Position numbers and translations under genes: made by a program. DNA of 64,000 nucleotides, taken from the NCBI RefSeq assembly GCF_053078305.1, contig NZ_CP166879.1. The stretch is one strand, 5' to 3'. How positions within the stretch are numbered: the first letter of the stretch is position 1; each line of letters starts with the position of its first letter. The notes beneath the pieces were generated by a model. It saw only the letters and a list, made by a program, of their open reading frames with translations, ran no database searches and had not been told where the DNA came from. Positions 1-15,961 of the stretch are shown here, piece after piece.

Positions 1-3000
1 ATCCCTCTTCTGTCCGCCTGCTGATTCAGCTTGAGCGTAACGGGCACTGGGTGACGGAGAAGGATATCACCATTAACGGCAAGACCACCTCGCAGTACCT
101 GACGTCTGTGATTCTGAATAATCTCCCTGAGCGCCCCTTTAACATCCGGATGGTCAGGGAGACGGCGGACAGCACCACGGACCAGCTGCAGAACAGAACG
201 CTGTGGTCGTCATACACCGAAATCATCGATGTGAAACAGTGCTACCCGAACACGGCCATTGTGGGGCTGCAGGTGGATGCGGAGCAGTTTGGTGGCCAGC
301 AGCTGACGGTGAACTACCATATCCGTGGTCGCATCATTCAGGTGCCGTCAAACTATGACCCGGAAAAACGCACCTACAGCGGTATCTGGGACGGGAGTCT
401 GAAACCGGCATACAGCAATAACCCGGCCTGGTGCCTGTGGGACATGCTGACCCACCCGCGCTACGGCATGGGAAAACGCCTGGGGGCCGCGGATGTGGAC
501 AAGTGGGCACTGTATGCCATCGGGCAGTACTGCGACCAGACGGTCCCGGATGGTTTCGGGGGAACAGAGCCGCGGATGACTTTCAATGCGTACCTGTCAC
601 AGCAGCGTAAGGTGTGGGATGTCCTGGGGGATTTCTGCTCGGCGATGCGCTGTATGCCGGTATGGAACGGCCAGACGCTGACGTTCGTTCAGGACCGTCC
701 GTCGGATGTGGTGTGGCCGTACACCAACAGCGATGTGGTGGTGGATGATAACGGCGTGGGGTTCCGCTACAGCTTCAGTGCCCTGAAGGACCGGCACACG
801 GCGGTGGAGGTGAATTACACCGACCCGCAGAACGGCTGGCAGACCTCCACGGAACTGGTGGAAGACCCGGACGCCATCCTGCGCTACGGACGCAACCTGC
901 TGAAGATGGATGCGTTTGGCTGTACCAGCCGCGGTCAGGCCCACCGTGCCGGACTGTGGGTGATAAAGACCGAACTGCTGGAAACGCAGACGGTGGATTT
1001 CACGCTCGGGTCACAGGGGCTGCGGCATACGCCCGGTGACATCATTGAAATCTGTGATAACGACTATGCCGGGACCCTGACCGGCGGACGCATCCTGTCC
1101 ATTGATGCCGCCAGCCGCACACTGACGCTGGACCGTGAGGTGACACTGCCGGAAGCAGGGACATCGACGGTGAACCTGATTAACGGCAGCGGTAAGCCGG
1201 TGCGCGTGGACATCACTGCACACCCCGCGCCGGACCGGATACAGGTCAGCGCCCTGCCGGATGGCGTGGAGACATACGGTGTGTGGGGACTCTCCCTGCC
1301 GTCACTGCGTCGTCGCCTGTTCCGCTGTGTTTCCATCCGGGAAAACACGGACGGCACTTTTGCCATCACGGCAGTGCAGCACGTACCGGAAAAAGAAGCC
1401 ATTGTGGATAACGGGGCTCGCTTTGAGCCGCTGTCCGGTTCACTGAACAGCGTTATCCCGCCGGCAGTGCAGCACCTCACGGTGGAGGTGAGTGCCTCAG
1501 ACGGCCAGTATCTGGCGCTGGCGAAATGGGACACGCCGCGGGTGGTGAAGGGCGTGCGCTTCAGTCTGCGCCTGACCAGCGGAAACGGTGAAAACAGCCG
1601 CCTGGTGACCACCGCCATCACTGCCGACACGGAGCACCGTTTCAGTGGCCTGCCTCTGGGGGAATACACCCTGACGGTCAGGGCGATAAACAGCTACGGC
1701 CAGCAGGGCGAACCTGCCACCACCGCGTTCCGGATTAATGCGCCTGCAGCACCGGCCAGCATTGAGCTGACGCCGGGGTATTATCAGATAACAGCAGTAC
1801 CGGTGCTGGCGGTGTATGACCCGACGGTACAGTTTGAGTTCTGGTTCTCGGAGGCAAAAATCGCAGACACATCTCAGGTGGAAACCTCTGCCCGTTATCT
1901 GGGGACAGGCAGCCAGTGGAGCGTCTCCGGCCCGCACATCAAGCCGGGGAAGGATTTCTGGTTTTATGTGCGCAGCGTTAACCTGGTGGGGAAATCTGCG
2001 TTTGTGGAAGCCAGTGGCCGGGCGAGCAATGATGCAGAAGGGTATCTGGGGCTGTTTCGGGAAAAGATAGGAAAACTGCATCTGGCACAGGGGATGTGGG
2101 AGCTGATTGATAACAGCCAGCTTGACAATGAGATGGCGGAGATGAAGACCACCATCACCGAAACCCGCAATGAAATCACGCAGACGGTCAGTAAAACCCT
2201 GGAAGACCAGAGCGCCACCATACAGCAGATACAGCGGGTGCAGACAGACACAAATAACGACCTGGCTGCGCTGTACATGCTGAAGGTGCAGAAAACAAAA
2301 AACGGCATTCCGTATGTTGCCGGTATAGGTGCGGGGATTGAGGATGCTGATGGCCAGCCCCTGAGCAATATTCTGCTGCAGGCGGACCGTATCGCGATGA
2401 TTAACCCGGAGAACGGCAACACCACGCCGCTGTTTGTGGCGCAGGGGAATCAGCTGTTCATGAACGATGTGTTCCTGAAGCGGTTGTTTGCAGTGAGCAT
2501 CACCTCGTCCGGCAATCCCCCGACGTTTTCCCTGACGCCGGACGGGAAACTGACGGCCCGCAATGCTGATATCAGCGGACATATCAGTGCGAACTCGGGC
2601 ACGCTGAATAATGTCGTGATAGCGGAGAACTGTACGATAAATGGCACGCTGAAAGCGGAGAACATTATTGGTGATCTTGTGAAATGTGCAGGGGTGGCTT
2701 TTCCGGTGGATGGTAGTTACCTTGCGAACGGTACACGAACGCTGACGGTATATGACGATCACAGCTTTGACCGGCAGATTATAATCCCGCCGATAATCTA
2801 TGTCGGGTCAAAACAGGAATCCCGTACCAGTAATGACATCTGGACAGAGTGCTTCCTGCATGTTGATCAGAACGGACGCCGGATTTATTCAGGCAGGTCA
2901 GTGACAGAGCCGGGAATTTTCAGCGGGATCATCGATATGCCAGCCGGAGGTGGTCATATCACCCTGAGTTTTACCGTAAGTTCACGACGTCAGAACGGGA

Positions 3001-3077
3001 GTTTTGGCAGTTCACGTATCAGTAACCTTCAGGCGATAGTGGTGAAGAAAAACAGCGCGGGGATCAGTATCCGCTGA
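1..3077 (+). CDS. Phage tail host-specificity protein (lambda gpJ-like), C-terminal ~1000 aa; reading frame is open to the window start, so 5' partial
   Basis: ORF 51..3077 continues in frame without a stop back to position 3; size and sequence style match lambda J-type tail tip proteins; followed by a tail-fibre gene. Confidence 0.85.
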
Positions 3078-3275
3078 ACATCGCGCCCCGGGATTGCCGG
3101 AAGGAGACAAAAACCGTACAGTATGCGCGGGTGCCTTTGGCTGATGGCCGGAGGGAACACCTGAAGGCCGGAAAGACGAAGGCCCCGGACAAACATTCAT
3201 GTTTAACCCGAGGCCTGACTTTCGATCTTCAGCAAATTGAAGGTTAGCGCCTCTCCGTAAAAGGAGCAAGCGTTT

Positions 3276-3416
3276 ATGTCGCAAAAACCGTTAAAAACCA
3301 CCGTGATTTGTACCACGGTAGTGCTCATTATCTGGATCACCCACACTTCACTGTGCGAGTTCCGGTTCCGGATAGCGGGCGCGGAGATTGCGGCGTTCTT
3401 ACAGTGTAAGCAGTAA
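3276..3416 (+). CDS. Hok/Gef-family type I toxin-like small membrane protein (46 aa: MSQKPLKTTVICTTVVLIIWITHTSLCEFRFRIAGAEIAAFLQCKQ)
   Basis: Read directly; below the ORF-track size cutoff. AAGGAG RBS 9 nt upstream of the ATG; basic N-terminus, one TM segment, C-terminal S-L-C-E-x-R/H ... A-A-F-L-x-C-K pattern as in HokA/HokB/Gef. Confidence 0.6.
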   Translation: MSQKPLKTTVICTTVVLIIWITHTSLCEFRFRIAGAEIAAFLQCKQ

Positions 3417-3558
3417 GAAACCGTGGCGTGGGAGAATATCCCCCGCCGACCGGTTGCTGAGGGTGGTCAGCCGGATGGCACCGTTTTAACACCAACAAAC
3501 CACAAATATTACCGCAGGCCGGGAAACCGGTACTGCGGTTTTTTTATGGGGGAAATCC

Positions 3559-5292
3559 ATGACAGTCAGAATATCGGGTGTGCTGAAGGATGGTACGGGA
3601 AAAGCGGTACCGGGATGCACGATAGAGCTGAAAGCGCGCCGCACAACGGAGACGGTGATTGTCACCACGGTGGCGTATGGTCAGCCGGGGGAAACCGGCA
3701 GTTACAGTATGGATGTTGAGCCGGGGTTGTACCGGGTGACGCTGAACACGGAAGGGTACGCGCCGTCATATGTGGGTGACATTCTGGTGAAGGCGGATTC
3801 TGCACCGGGAACGCTGAATAAATTTCTGATGGACCTGGAAGACGCACAGTATTACCCGAAAGCCCTTGCAGAGCTGGAAGCGGTGGCAGCGGAAATCCTG
3901 AAGCGTGCAGAAGCGTCAGCGGCCAGTGCAGAGGAAGCGAAGAAACGGGCAGAGAATGCGCGGGGACCGAAGGGGGATAAGGGAGACACCGGGCCACAGG
4001 GGATTCCCGGGCCAAAAGGCGATACCGGCGAGCGGGGGCCAAAGGGTGAGCGTGGTGAGACAGGGCCACAGGGGCTTCAGGGTGTGAAAGGTGAACGGGG
4101 AGAGAAGGGCGAAAAAGGCGAGCCGGGAGGGCCGGATGCGACGACGGCACAGAAGGGAATTGTGCAGTTAAGCAGCGCAACGGACAGTGATGATGAAACG
4201 AAGGCAGCCACGCCGAAAGCGGTGAAAGCGGCAATGGACAAAGCGGACGGATGCCTGGAGAAAGCGAAAAACGGTGACGATATCCCGGATAAGGTGAAGT
4301 TTCTGAACACCGTGGGAGCAGCCAGAGTATACGGGCGGGACATTCATACGGGGGCCGGTGAATGGACCACGAGTGAGTTTGTCGCCTGGCTGAAAGAAAA
4401 AGGGGCATTTGACCAGCCTTACTGGATGATGAAGGCATCACTGCTTGCGTCAATGAATAAAGTCATCACAGATGTCGGACCGGGAAAACTCAATCTGGGT
4501 GGCTGTGTCATTGAGGTGATGGGAACGTATGAGGCTGCCATAGTCCGGGTCACCATTGGCGAATACGGTGCAACGGGGTTTATTAATGGCACGGTCTGTA
4601 CCTGTACGGTTTACGGCGACACACAGTATTTCCACTGGCGGGTGGATTACAGCACAAAAAACAAACCGGATACGGTCAGCCAGCGGGATGCCAGTACGAC
4701 GCAGAAAGGTGTGGTGCAGTTAAGCAGTGATACTGGCAGTAATGACGAAACAAAGGCAGCCACGCCGAAGGCCGTGAAGGCGGCAATGGATGTGGCAAAT
4801 GAAGCGAAAACAAAGGCAGAAGAGGCTGCAGCAGGAGGTGGTGTTCCCGGTCCGAAAGGAGAGAAAGGTGACCCCGGAGCACAGGGTCCGAAAGGTGAAA
4901 CGGGAGCAACAGGCCCCGCTGGTCCGCGGGGAGCGCAGGGACCGAAAGGGGAGAAAGGCGACCCCGGTCCCAGAGGTGAGCGTGGAGAAACCGGGCCGAT
5001 GGGGCCGCCGGGGGCATCAGGAGATGACGGGAAGAGTCGTGTCATGGGCTTCAGGCTGGGGAATCCGGTAACGTATGAGTTGCAGGAGGGGGACCATGGC
5101 TGGTCAGTTAATCTGGCTGATGGTTCAGTCATTACAGGGCTTTCGGGGAACACTCAGGGCGGCGTCAGCCGTGTTACAACGATTTACTACAGGCCGCTGC
5201 AGATGACGTTTGATGGCTCTCACTGGCGCACCGTTGGTGTTGGTGAGTATGTGTCGTCAGGAGCGCCGGGGCGTGAGTATTTTTCATTATAA
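3559..5292 (+). CDS. Phage tail fibre protein with two collagen-like Gly-X-Y tracts and duplicated phage tail-fibre repeat motif
   Basis: 577-aa ORF after [14 protein letters not shown]... tracts; motif [32 protein letters not shown] present twice. Confidence 0.85.
3964..4131 (+). repeat. Collagen-like Gly-X-Y tract 1 inside tail-fibre CDS
   Basis: About 56 codons of uninterrupted G-X-Y triplets. Confidence 0.85.
4141..4238 (+). repeat. Phage tail-fibre repeat motif, copy 1 (direct repeat with 4696..4790)
   Basis: About 100 bp segment re-occurring about 555 bp downstream at both nucleotide and protein level. Confidence 0.75.
4696..4790 (+). repeat. Phage tail-fibre repeat motif, copy 2
   Basis: Direct repeat of 4141..4238. 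Confidence 0.75.
4834..5025 (+). repeat. Collagen-like Gly-X-Y tract 2 inside tail-fibre CDS
   Basis: About 64 codons of G-X-Y triplets. Confidence 0.85.
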
Positions 5293-5333
5293 AGCGCATC
5301 ACTTGTCAGACATGTAACCGGGAGGACTTACAG

Positions 5334-6005
5334 ATGCACATAAAGAATTTCAGACAATACACGCCGGAAAATCCGGATGTGCCGGGTGCGATGTACCTGA
5401 AATCAGAGGATGGTCAGGACTGGTATGAGTGTCAGTCGTTATTTTCAGCAGAGACGCTGAAGGTGGTTTATAACAGTGCCGGGGTCATTACCGGCATCAG
5501 CAGGGTGGCATCAGTTCTGTGGCCTGTGAATCAGAGTGTGGTGGAGGTGGCGGATACGGAAGAAAACCGCAAAGCTGACATCTCCGGGCGCTGGGGTTTT
5601 GACGGGGAGAAAATCACGGACCTGCTGACCGCGGAGAAAGCGCGAGGGATGAAGGGCGATGAAATTAACGCCTGGCGTAATGCGATGGAAGCGGCGAACT
5701 ACACGTTTGAGCACAATGGGCGTAAATGGGACTACGGGAAGTCAACGCAGACGCGTCTTGAGCCGTCGGTGGCGGCAGCGAAAGCGGGGAAACTGCCGGA
5801 GGCGTTTTTCTGGACGGATGCGGAAAACAATGATGTGCCGGTGACAGCAGACGAGCTTATTGCGCTGAGTGAAGCGGCAGAGCAGGCGATGTTTACCAAA
5901 GGGATGGAAATCCACGTCCGGCAGCGCACCATGAAGAAAGAGCTGGAAAAGCTGACCAGTGAGGATGAGATACTGGCATACAGGGTTGGCTGGGCACAGG
6001 AATAA
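5334..6005 (+). CDS. Tail-fibre assembly/chaperone-like protein (Tfa-like)
   Basis: 223-aa ORF immediately downstream of the tail fibre with GGAGG-type RBS; C-terminal region resembles tail-fibre assembly proteins. Confidence 0.5.
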   Translation: MHIKNFRQYTPENPDVPGAMYLKSEDGQDWYECQSLFSAETLKVVYNSAGVITGISRVASVLWPVNQSVVEVADTEENRKADISGRWGFDGEKITDLLTAEKARGMKGDEINAWRNAMEAANYTFEHNGRKWDYGKSTQTRLEPSVAAAKAGKLPEAFFWTDAENNDVPVTADELIALSEAAEQAMFTKGMEIHVRQRTMKKELEKLTSEDEILAYRVGWAQE

Positions 6006-6016
6006 CAGACAAAAAG

Positions 6017-6040
6017 ATGGGGGACCATCACCTCCCCCAT
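6017..6040 (+). terminator. Stem-loop (GGGGGA ... TCCCCC) after the phage tail-fibre genes; weak T-tract
   Basis: Inverted repeat seen in sequence. Confidence 0.35.
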
Positions 6041-6317
6041 GAACTGCGTTGACTATGTAATTATTGTGAAGAGACCTTACCTACACAGATAAAGAGTGCC
6101 ACGGAAAAGTTAATTCCGGAAGTGATGGAGCTCTCATTTTTGCGTGCTTTTTGTTCATGGGATTTACATGGGGCATCTTGGGGCATATATGGGACAAAAG
6201 AAGTCCTCAGATAAACAGAGAAATCGAGTTCAGGATTCTTATTGAAAAATGTAATTATCTGAAAAAACTTAGAAAACGCAAATAAGGCCACAGAATGTTA
6301 GAAAACATCTATGAATT

Positions 6318-7601
6318 ATGGATTTCCAGTTATATTCGCTCGGCGCAGCGTTAGTGTTTCATGAAATATTTTTTCCTGAATCATCAACGGCAATGGCGTT
6401 AATTTTGGCAATGGGAACCTACGGTGCAGGTTATGTGGCGCGTATTGTCGGAGCATTTATTTTCGGCAAAATGGGCGACAGAATAGGGCGTAAAAAAGTG
6501 CTCTTTATTACCATCACCATGATGGGGATCTGTACCACCTTAATTGGTGTGTTACCGACCTATGCACAGATTGGTGTTTTTGCCCCCATCTTGCTGGTGA
6601 CGCTGCGTATTATTCAGGGGTTGGGTGCAGGTGCGGAAATTTCCGGTGCCGGTACGATGCTGGCGGAATATGCGCCAAAAGGTAAGCGCGGAATTATCTC
6701 CTCATTTGTAGCTATGGGAACTAACTGCGGAACCTTGAGCGCAACGGCAATCTGGGCCTTTATGTTCTTCATTCTCAGTAAAGAGGAACTGCTGGCGTGG
6801 GGATGGCGTATACCGTTCCTGGCGAGCGTTGTCGTGATGGTCTTTGCTATCTGGTTGCGTATGAATCTGAAAGAAAGCCCGGTCTTTGAGAAGGTTAACG
6901 ACAGCAACCAACCGACAGCAAAACCTGCACCTGCTGGTAGCATGTTCCAGAGCAAATCCTTCTGGCTGGCAACAGGGCTGCGTTTTGGTCAGGCAGGTAA
7001 CTCCGGGTTAATTCAGACTTTCCTTGCAGGCTATTTAGTACAGACGTTATTGTTTAACAAAGCAATTCCAACAGATGCATTGATGATCAGTTCGATTCTC
7101 GGCTTTATGACCATTCCGTTCCTTGGTTGGTTATCCGATAAAATTGGTCGCCGGATCCCGTATATTATTATGAATACCTCTGCGATTGTGCTGGCATGGC
7201 CAATGCTTTCTATCATCGTAGATAAAAGCTATGCCCCGAGCACCATTATGGTTGCACTGATTGTGATTCATAACTGTGCGGTGCTGGGATTATTTGCTCT
7301 GGAAAACATTACCATGGCAGAAATGTTCGGCTGTAAAAACCGCTTTACCCGGATGGCTATTTCTAAAGAAATTGGTGGTCTTATCGCTTCCGGTTTTGGT
7401 CCTATCCTTGCGGGTATTTTCTGCACCATGACGGAATCCTGGTATCCGATCGCCATTATGATCATGGCATATTCAGTGATTGGTTTAATCTCTGCGCTGA
7501 AAATGCCAGAAGTGAAAGACCGTGATTTAAGTGCGCTGGAAGACGCTGCGGAGGATCAACCGCGTGTTGTAAGAGCTGCGCAACCTTCCAGAAGTCTGTA
7601 A
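6318..7601 (+). pseudogene. ydfJ: ydfJ, 5'-truncated MFS (metabolite:H+ symporter family) transporter; N-terminal TM segments replaced by prophage DNA
   Basis: 427-aa ORF starts inside the conserved G-x-x-x-R-P-x-G ... GDRIGRKK loop-2/3 motif; in-frame stop 2 codons upstream; prophage genes directly upstream. Confidence 0.8.
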
Positions 7602-15656: not shown

Positions 15657-15679
15657 CATTCATTGAGAAAACTGATGCT

Positions 15680-15790
15680 ACTGTGTCAACGATCCGTTAT
15701 CAGTGCAGGAAAATGCCTGTTAGCGTAAAAGCAAAACACAAATCTATCCATGCAAGCATTCACCGCCGGTTTACTGGCGGTTTTTTTTTT
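15680..15790 (+). ncRNA. mgrR: Putative PhoP-dependent Hfq sRNA MgrR (about 100 nt), ending at hairpin CCGCCGG/CTGGCGG plus T10
   Basis: Strong intrinsic terminator at 15763..15790 with no coding ORF, PhoP-box upstream; 5' end approximate. Confidence 0.5.
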
Positions 15791-15807
15791 CGCCGTCATA
15801 AAAATCA

Positions 15808-15838
15808 GGCCCCTTGTACACAACTGTAACAAGGGGCC
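15808..15838 (-). terminator. Terminator hairpin of mgtS (GGCCCCTTGT ... ACAAGGGGCC, T-rich on minus strand)
   Basis: 10-bp inverted repeat just 3' of the mgtS stop on the minus strand. Confidence 0.5.
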
Positions 15839-15865
15839 GGTTAGGTGAGGGATTATCTCCGTTCA

Positions 15866-15961
15866 TTAGTCATCCCATTTGTGGCTGAAATACGCGGCCA
15901 GAAAACCAGAAAATAAAATTATTCCCAGTACGGCCATAAAAACATTCATATTACCCAGCAT
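15866..15961 (-). CDS. mgtS: 31-aa inner-membrane small protein MgtS (YneM): MLGNMNVFMAVLGIILFSGFLAAYFSHKWDD
   Basis: Translated by hand from the minus strand; not in the ORF track because of size. Confidence 0.85.
   Translation of the reverse strand: MLGNMNVFMAVLGIILFSGFLAAYFSHKWDD

Follow-up and report, generated by a model that had tools for sequence, protein, structure and literature searches.

The open reading frame at positions 3559-5292 of the window (the whole 64,000-nucleotide stretch of contig NZ_CP166879.1, RefSeq assembly GCF_053078305.1, that was analysed) is very probably an ordinary, intact stf, the side tail fibre gene of a lambda-like E. coli prophage. It runs as a single uninterrupted frame from an ATG at 3559 to a TAA at 5290-5292 and encodes 577 residues, and E. 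coli proteins 91-93% identical to its product are annotated as prophage tail fibres. Pfam searches with the product returned PF08400 (E 3.8e-40) together with two stretches each of PF01391 and PF03406, and its best PHROG match was the tail fiber protein family 366 (E 1e-121). The PF08400 match, the match to a solved side-fibre collar (PDB 9E7M, E 7.5e-28) and the position between J and tfa bear out the tail fibre assignment made in an earlier note on this DNA.

The gene lies after the tail-tip gene J and before a tail-fibre assembly gene, and the order J, hok/sok, stf, tfa is the same in annotated relatives. The window opens inside J, which is cut by the window start, and the position of J fixes the place of the fibre gene in the tail module. 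Besides the match listed in Table 1, the tfa frame has a weak match to PF02413 (Caudo_TAP) and matches PHROG 11571 and PHROG 136 (tail fiber assembly protein, E 4.5e-33). Downstream of tfa, ydfJ without its N-terminus begins at 6318, and strain JNE120393 carries the same arrangement of stf, tfa and truncated ydfJ; this gene order, with the match in JNE120393, marks the locus as the right-hand end of a lambdoid prophage integrated at Qin/ydfJ, the site that Qin occupies in K-12. Two long frames on the other strand, 3662-4453 and 4647-5153, are not regarded as genes, since they translate into low-complexity sequence rich in Pro and Ser; they probably reflect the periodicity of collagen codons read in antisense.

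Table 1. Genes around the fibre gene and domains of its product, in window coordinates (aa, residues of the 577-residue protein).
Feature	Position	Strand	Basis or remark
J, 3' part (tip attachment / central fibre gene)	51..3077	+	Pfam Ig_J, Phage-tail_3, Ig_GpJ_C and others
stf, side tail fibre gene (very probable)	3559..5292	+	577 aa, stop codon included; PHROG 366
Collar (virion-attachment) domain, aa 1-91, Ur-lambda gpStfN homologue	3559..3831	+	PDB 9e7m_Ta, E 7.5e-28
Linker and short Ala/Glu/Lys-rich helix, aa 92-135	3832..3963	+	within the PF08400 match; sequence reading
Col1, 19 uninterrupted Gly-X-Y triplets, aa 136-192 (57 residues)	3964..4134	+	PF01391
Pf2-1, phage tail fibre repeat, aa 193-227	4135..4239	+	PF03406, best stretch aa 195-235; repeat copy 1
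Linker and globular knob, aa 227-376	4237..4686	+	homologous to phage Mu(-) tail fibre S'
Pf2-2, second phage tail fibre repeat, aa 377-411	4687..4791	+	PF03406, second stretch; repeat copy 2
16-aa linker, aa 412-427	4792..4839	+	kept beside Pf2 in 933W; more diverged in P-EibA
Col2, 22 Gly-X-Y triplets, aa 428-493 (66 residues)	4840..5037	+	length-variable tract of the family
C-terminal knob, aa 494-577, divergent, Phage_fiber_C-like	5038..5289	+	PF06820, E 0.0087, below cutoff
tfa, tail fibre assembly / chaperone gene, 223 aa	5334..6005	+	PF14301 (DUF4376), E 4.9e-18

From N- to C-terminus, the protein consists of a collar of the lambda Stf type, a short helix, a first collagen tract (Col1), a first phage tail fibre repeat (Pf2-1), a knob of the Mu(-) type, a second repeat (Pf2-2), a helical linker, a second collagen tract (Col2) and a variable C-terminal knob. 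The PF08400 match spans residues 1-134 and the full length of the model. The helix in residues 92-135 is predicted in a low-confidence model only, and this segment appears to be a much shortened counterpart, about 40 residues long, of the PCoil region of related fibres; the full-length AF2 model from the single sequence was unusable (pLDDT 38.5, pTM 0.21).

Both collagen tracts are uninterrupted in their Gly-X-Y pattern (PF01391, E 1.1e-18). Glycine makes up 15% of the residues, and the probability of 19 glycines falling in register by chance is about 4e-16. The tracts are 41-53% charged and 21-27% proline at X/Y positions, a composition that fits the bacterial-collagen type; bacterial collagens are stabilised without hydroxyproline. 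That there are two such tracts had been noticed before, with 56 and 64 triplets assigned to them where we count 19 and 22. The figures 56 and 64 refer to residues. The motif singled out in the earlier note is Phage_fiber_2 (PF03406, here Pf2), which occurs in two copies (E 3.1e-35). The note had placed it ahead of each tract: there are indeed two copies and the second tract is preceded by one, but the first tract is followed by its copy. The globular domain between the two copies had been overlooked.

This middle domain (residues 227-376) matches residues 175-324 of the phage Mu G(-) tail fibre S' in sequence (PDB 8JU3, domain E 1.1e-30), a structure reportedly described by Mori et al. in 2024, and no Pfam model matches it. 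In an exhaustive HMMER search, the domain was found in 270 representative clusters at E<=1e-3, where it is nearly always followed by more sequence, commonly 90-170 residues, and rarely accompanied by collagen. This broad distribution identifies it as a compact α/β knob that serves in fibres of many kinds. The N-terminus of Mu S' is of the myovirus baseplate fibre type and the Mu fibre has no collagen, whereas the protein described here has collagen and a lambda Stf collar. In Mu, moreover, the distal part is switched by an invertase acting on the invertible G segment, whereas no invertase gene lies between tfa and ydfJ here. An inversion system of the Mu Gin/gix type was accordingly rejected for this locus: the repeats are direct rather than inverted, and tfa is the only frame between stf and ydfJ. 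A search of window positions 3000-6400 for a gix-like core found no AAACCNNGGTTT-type site with at most one mismatch.

With PF06820 (Phage_fiber_C), the last 84 residues give a weak match of 16.8 bits (E 0.0087), below the cutoff of 25, and they align with the PfC domain of phage 933W through the conserved RLG...ITG...LQ...W positions. A profile of this C-terminus containing no Mu-like row matched only the extreme C-terminal end of a short tail fibre (9cuy, E 6e-4); with one Mu-like intermediate row added, it matched residues 439-503 of Mu S (5yvq, E 3.5e-7), a match seen only with that row, and a relationship to the Mu S C-terminus is therefore suggestive only. At the DNA level, the C-terminal segment is 66-67% identical to three full-length relatives and every other segment 95-99%. 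Divergence confined to the C-terminus is the signature expected of a receptor-binding end, and these 84 residues are presumed to serve both receptor binding and trimerisation. A word-indexed search with an 86-residue C-terminal query returned only five proteins, all near-identical and partial.

The gene fits the family of EHEC prophage collagen-like proteins (EPclP), which has already been described. Excerpts of Ghosh et al. 2012 (PLoS One 7:e37872, PMC3368898) describe EPclA-D as built from PfN, PCoil, Col, Pf2 and PfC/PfC2 domains, with Col lengths differing in multiples of three residues; report that recombinant EPclA is trimeric and forms a thermostable collagen triple helix, PCoil and PfC each trimerising; and ascribe the modular architectures to recombination between prophages. 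According to the same excerpts, EPclB has two Col domains with Pf2 between them (933W L0121 and Sp5 ECs1228 are examples), and EPclC, exemplified by ORF-401 of P-EibA, often lacks PCoil. When translated, ORF-401 has a single Pf2 between its collagen tracts. Immuno-EM has placed the Sp5 EPclB protein ECs1228, which is essential, at the end of the tail (PMC5155283). In common with this family, the gene in the window is a prophage tail fibre gene by position; its product begins with PfN (PF08400), has Pf2 sequence between two Col domains, carries many charged residues in its collagen and ends in a PfC-like segment. It differs in having two Pf2 copies that bracket about 150 residues (the linker and Mu(-)-type knob), a knob not among the domain types named in the excerpts of Ghosh et al. 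2012. Its helix of about 40 residues stands where EPclA, EPclB and EPclD have a PCoil of 88-116 residues, which resembles the condition in EPclC; its collagen tracts, at 57 and 66 residues, are shorter; and its C-terminus scores below the PF06820 cutoff, whereas EPclA and EPclB have PfC. The architecture with two Pf2 copies is nevertheless not peculiar to this copy: it is common to more than 100 protein clusters (all 120 of the best homologue clusters) and is found in the sequenced phages 1720a-02, whose gene is 92.6% identical, P13771 and phiSTEC1589.

The collar ties the protein to phage lambda. Chain Ta of PDB 9E7M is the collar of Ur-lambda gpStf, which contacts gpV and gpM at the tail tip, and each virion carries four trimeric side fibres (PMC12617516). 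The likeness to Ur-lambda gpStf/Tfa extends from the collar domain to the place of the gene after J, the assembly gene next to it and a presumed role in speeding adsorption. The shaft of lambda Stf, however, is described as a coiled coil and its distal domain as T4 gp37-like and OmpC-binding, whereas here the shaft is collagen, with a Mu-type knob and a small PfC-like tip. No match to gp37 or to the lambda Stf distal domain was found in the PDB sequence search or in Pfam.

The two Pf2 copies are visible in the DNA as a direct repeat (4131-4238 and 4683-4790) of 108 nt, ungapped, 81% identical and 552 nt from start to start. When the codons of the gene were shuffled 200 times, no 108-nt window had more than 58 matches, against approximately 87 in the repeat. 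The repeat that the earlier note had drawn attention to is thus real, and it lies where it was placed (4141..4238 and 4696..4790) apart from a minor slip of register by 3 nt at 4696. Of the 35 codon pairs in the alignment, 18 match exactly, 11 show a synonymous and six a non-synonymous difference, and the longest identity is 17 nt. This short maximal identity, together with the 11 synonymous differences, gives no indication of recent exchange between the copies, which are old paralogues whose similarity is held by constraint on the protein. RecA-type recombination between them should be very inefficient. Col2 of this copy has no tandem repeat to offer in its place, the window's collagen tracts holding nothing beyond a weak 18-nt match of 2.3 copies; at 81% identity, with a longest match of 17 nt and such a Col2, the copy in the window is a poor substrate for intragenic rearrangement. 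There is no Chi site in window positions 3000-6400.

In the wider family, Pf2 copies have recombined. Phage 933W has a single Pf2, which is Pf2-1-like at every informative nucleotide up to ...GTGAAAGCGGCAATGGA and is identical from there on to the sequence 3' of Pf2-2. Up to this junction, 933W and P13771 are 98.9% identical without gaps over 2604 nt, after which P13771 has an extra 552 nt, and the crossover can be placed within 11 nt of identical sequence at the repeat's 3' end. The hybrid Pf2 of 933W and its 552-nt difference from P13771 indicate that a repeat-bounded indel occurred in the family. Both states are common: 324 complete-genome records contain the hybrid junction at >=95% identity, and 93 genomes contain the knob cassette, which reaches six copies in a single genome. 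Recombination mediated by the repeat, as proposed in the earlier note, is accordingly supported as family history and stays a conjecture for this copy. P-EibA has one diverged, Pf2-2-like copy of Pf2, and the myovirus-type fibre of P0129 has Pf2, knob and Pf2 but no collagen. A search with an artificial deletion-junction query found no deleted form in a PfN/Col1 background like that of the window. One candidate for a deleted form in a PfN-type gene, H63, was rejected, being only the Pf2-2 of a normal 575-residue gene aligned through at lower identity.

These observations allow a more ambitious reading, which we consider unlikely. The Pf2-bracketed 552-nt cassette (linker, Mu-type knob and Pf2) might be a portable module, inserted and deleted repeatedly by Pf2-Pf2 recombination across the otherwise unrelated fibres of siphoviruses, Stx podoviruses and myoviruses, and its knob could be a second receptor-binding site in mid-shaft, in which case its gain or loss would change host range. 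The idea arises because the indel and the distribution across phage families are real, and because the only solved relative of the knob is the Mu(-) fibre.

Most variation in fibre length lies elsewhere. Among the 120 best homologue clusters, Col1 has 19 triplets in 118, whereas the length of Col2 varies between 20 and 72, with clear modes at 36 (21 clusters), 48 (33) and 60 (19) and one case each at 24 and 72. In strain 99-3311, whose Col2 has 48 triplets, a 108-nt (12-triplet) unit recurs in tandem within that tract, in 3.0 copies at 98% identity. The spacing of the modes and this tandem array suggest that fibre length varies mainly by gain or loss of the 108-nt unit. The C-terminal type found in the window is accompanied by short Col2 tracts of 20-26 triplets. 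The length variants sought across relatives in the earlier note therefore exist, and the 552-nt indel does contribute to them, but the greater part arises in the second collagen tract by way of the 108-nt unit. Its further suggestion, that recombination at the Pf2 repeat could change the receptor-binding end, does not apply to the 552-nt indel, which adds or removes the knob and leaves that end as it is. Overall, the recombination idea is partly supported: it is right in spirit for the family, but was aimed at the less important recombination substrate.

Exchange of distal ends leaves its traces at other points. BLAST alignments with relatives break within Col1 at window position 4082, at the Col1/Pf2-1 boundary (4134/4135), within Col2 at about 4872, 4967 and 5025, just past Col2 at about 5064 and just inside tfa at 5358; swaps of the distal end thus break in or beside the collagen tracts or at the Col1/Pf2-1 boundary. 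From Pf2-1 onward, the short-tailed Stx phages phiSTEC1589 and P13771 are 91-95% identical to the window and have a different N-terminal half, and strain M18 has the knob without Pf2 or Col2. Mosaicism of tail fibres through exchange at conserved motifs was reportedly described by Haggard-Ljungquist in 1992 and by Sandmeier in 1994. The locus is alike in having fibre segments common to sipho-, podo- and myoviruses with sharp breakpoints alongside; there is no difference in principle, and it is one more example. In experiments, recombination across stf/tfa has been obtained between lambda and the prophages Rac and Qin, and Rad52-like phage recombinases act on DNA of about 78-88% identity (De Paepe 2014, PMC3945230).

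Might the Pf2 repeats nevertheless act as a recurrent switch in this very prophage, with the 552-nt cassette often lost and restored so that two fibre forms are mixed? The repeat-bounded indel between 933W and P13771 exists in nature, both forms are common, the P0129 fibre has the same arrangement of Pf2, knob and Pf2, and phage recombinases tolerate divergence of about 20%. But the two copies in the window differ at 11 of the 29 codons that specify the same amino acid and share at most 17 nt, which marks them as old paralogues that have not been homogenised; both copies hold fixed positions in all 120 best homologue clusters; and the location of the 933W junction in 11 nt of identity fits one rare event that was then inherited. 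We therefore give an active switch only a slight chance. A different doubt concerns the integrity of the gene, which looks like two fibres set end to end, a domain found near the distal end of Mu S' and of many other fibres being followed by another unit of Pf2, collagen and knob. Its closest copy in a complete genome is annotated by RefSeq as fragments, and the prophage occupies the site of Qin, a defective element, all of which could suit the view that two fibre genes of a defective prophage became fused through decay or accident and that no functional fibre is made. Such a fusion is very improbable, however: the frame is intact, as is the same frame in JNEC-KY171 when translated; the architecture is kept in more than 100 protein clusters and in phages 1720a-02, P13771 and phiSTEC1589; and the concentration of divergence in the C-terminal knob, the rest remaining 95-99% identical, fits selection on a working receptor-binding protein.

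The collagen-like tracts, rich in charged residues, also recall bacterial surface adhesins or virulence factors such as the streptococcal Scl proteins, and relatives of the locus have YadA/Eib adhesin genes just downstream of tfa. That the protein itself is such an adhesin, carried as prophage cargo and not as a part of the virion, is scarcely credible, as neither an anchor to cell wall or membrane nor an autotransporter domain was seen in it, its N-terminus is the lambda Stf collar, its gene lies within the tail module next to a fibre chaperone gene, and the Sp5 homologue is located on the phage tail.

With the gene taken as the intact stf of a lambda-like siphovirus, the fibre would be a homotrimer whose three N-terminal collar domains dock on the tail tube and tip ring. 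The short helix at the PCoil position, where PCoil trimerises in EPclA, may help to bring the chains together. Collagen rises by about 0.29 nm per residue, and on this basis the 19 triplets of Col1 would form a rigid triple-helical rod of about 16 nm, followed by a globular node made of Pf2-1 and the knob of Mu(-) fold, and then, beyond Pf2-2 and the helical linker, by Col2 as a second collagen rod of about 19 nm. At the far end, the 84-residue C-terminal knob, folded with the help of Tfa, would bind the host surface and speed adsorption, as lambda Stf does. The gene itself would represent one combination from a pool of interchangeable fibre modules. The conserved segments coding for collagen and Pf2 could serve as patches of homology at which phage (Rad52-like) and host recombination act, and recombination at these patches would swap distal ends, insert or excise the Pf2-bounded knob cassette, and make Col2 longer or shorter.

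Collagen-like modular prophage fibres of pathogenic E. coli are already described, partly characterised biochemically and routinely annotated; the locus adds little new biology and confirms a known kind. Within that frame, the pair of 933W and P13771 is a clean textbook case of a repeat-bounded module indel, and the series of 36, 48 and 60 triplets illustrates how a 108-nt tandem unit varies the length of a fibre. The domain map corrects the picture given in the earlier note and draws attention to a widespread knob domain of fibres, one that no Pfam model covers though a relative of it has been solved. More generally, fibres of this kind influence which strains are adsorbed by Stx and other lambdoid phages, and maps of their modules are useful for the prediction or engineering of host range.

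The closest copy of stf, the collagen-like side tail fibre gene of the window prophage, in a complete genome is that of E. coli JNEC-KY171 (NZ_AP045167.1, locus L001 6001-7734; 98.8% identical), whose prophage occupies a different chromosomal site, near zinT/yodB. In the RefSeq annotation this copy is split into two pseudogene fragments and one short CDS; on translation, its 1734-nt frame is free of internal stops, and the fragmented annotation looks like an artefact on a repetitive gene. The collagen tracts of the window copy have two long ORFs on the opposite strand, both of which we rejected as genes. Their translations are Pro/Ser-rich and of low complexity; the ORFs are most likely by-products of Gly-X-Y codon periodicity.

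Features of the window in the stf region and beyond
Feature	Position	Strand	Details
hok/sok-type toxin-antitoxin locus	3129-3416	+	between J and stf
sok (Rfam RF01794)	3129-3287	+	63.5 bits
Hok-family ORF, 46 aa	3276-3416	+	PHROG 251 MokW-like host killing, E 4.4e-20
GC-rich hairpin, then U7 run	3511-3546	+	dG -25.3 kcal/mol, z -5.4
Antisense ORF, 263 aa	3662-4453	-	opposite collagen tracts
Antisense ORF, 168 aa	4647-5153	-	opposite collagen tracts
STnc560 Hfq-binding sRNA (Rfam RF01407)	15657-15872	+	276 bits, full length, chromosomal part of window

The interval upstream of stf, which here holds a toxin-antitoxin locus, is occupied in relatives by hok/sok or else by a lom gene. Directly 5' of the stf start codon stands a strong hairpin, which a simple terminator scan did not pick up and which probably terminates transcription of hok. 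In that case, expressing stf would require read-through, for example by late-gene antitermination.

Beyond tfa, the gene downstream of stf, the junction between prophage and chromosome falls within 6006-6318. The ydfJ ORF begins at 6318 without its N-terminus, and the prophage end and ydfJ are arranged likewise in strain JNE120393. G+C content is 54-58% across J, stf and tfa, versus 48% in the flanking chromosome. Relatives carry genes for YadA-like or Eib immunoglobulin-binding adhesins just 3' of tfa (L003 5305-6500, L011 4720-5964 and L007 3918-4150, in coordinates local to each locus); the window prophage has no such adhesin gene 3' of tfa, where the gap to ydfJ is only ~300 nt.

A search for homologues of the knob, the Mu(-)-fibre-type globular domain that lies between the two copies of the Pf2 phage tail fibre repeat (PF03406) in stf, returned a 689-aa myovirus-type fibre, P0129, whose N-terminus looks, by eye, P2/Mu-type. 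This protein carries a Pf2-knob-Pf2 block as in the window stf, without collagen, followed by the Mu Sc-like linker FIQNVGLQE, which we take to be the counterpart of the Mu stretch encoding the gix crossover site. That correspondence hints that the boundary of the knob cassette (the Pf2-bounded 552 nt) coincides with an old invertible-segment boundary.

Collagen tract 2, the distal Gly-X-Y tract of stf, varies in length. Its lengths across the stf family peak at 36, 48 and 60 triplets, and in E. coli 99-3311 (L010 3845-4170) the tract contains a 108-nt (12-triplet) tandem repeat in 3.0 copies at 98% identity. Together, the tandem repeat and these peaks suggest that fibre length is driven mainly by unit-wise expansion and contraction of the 108-nt repeat in this tract.
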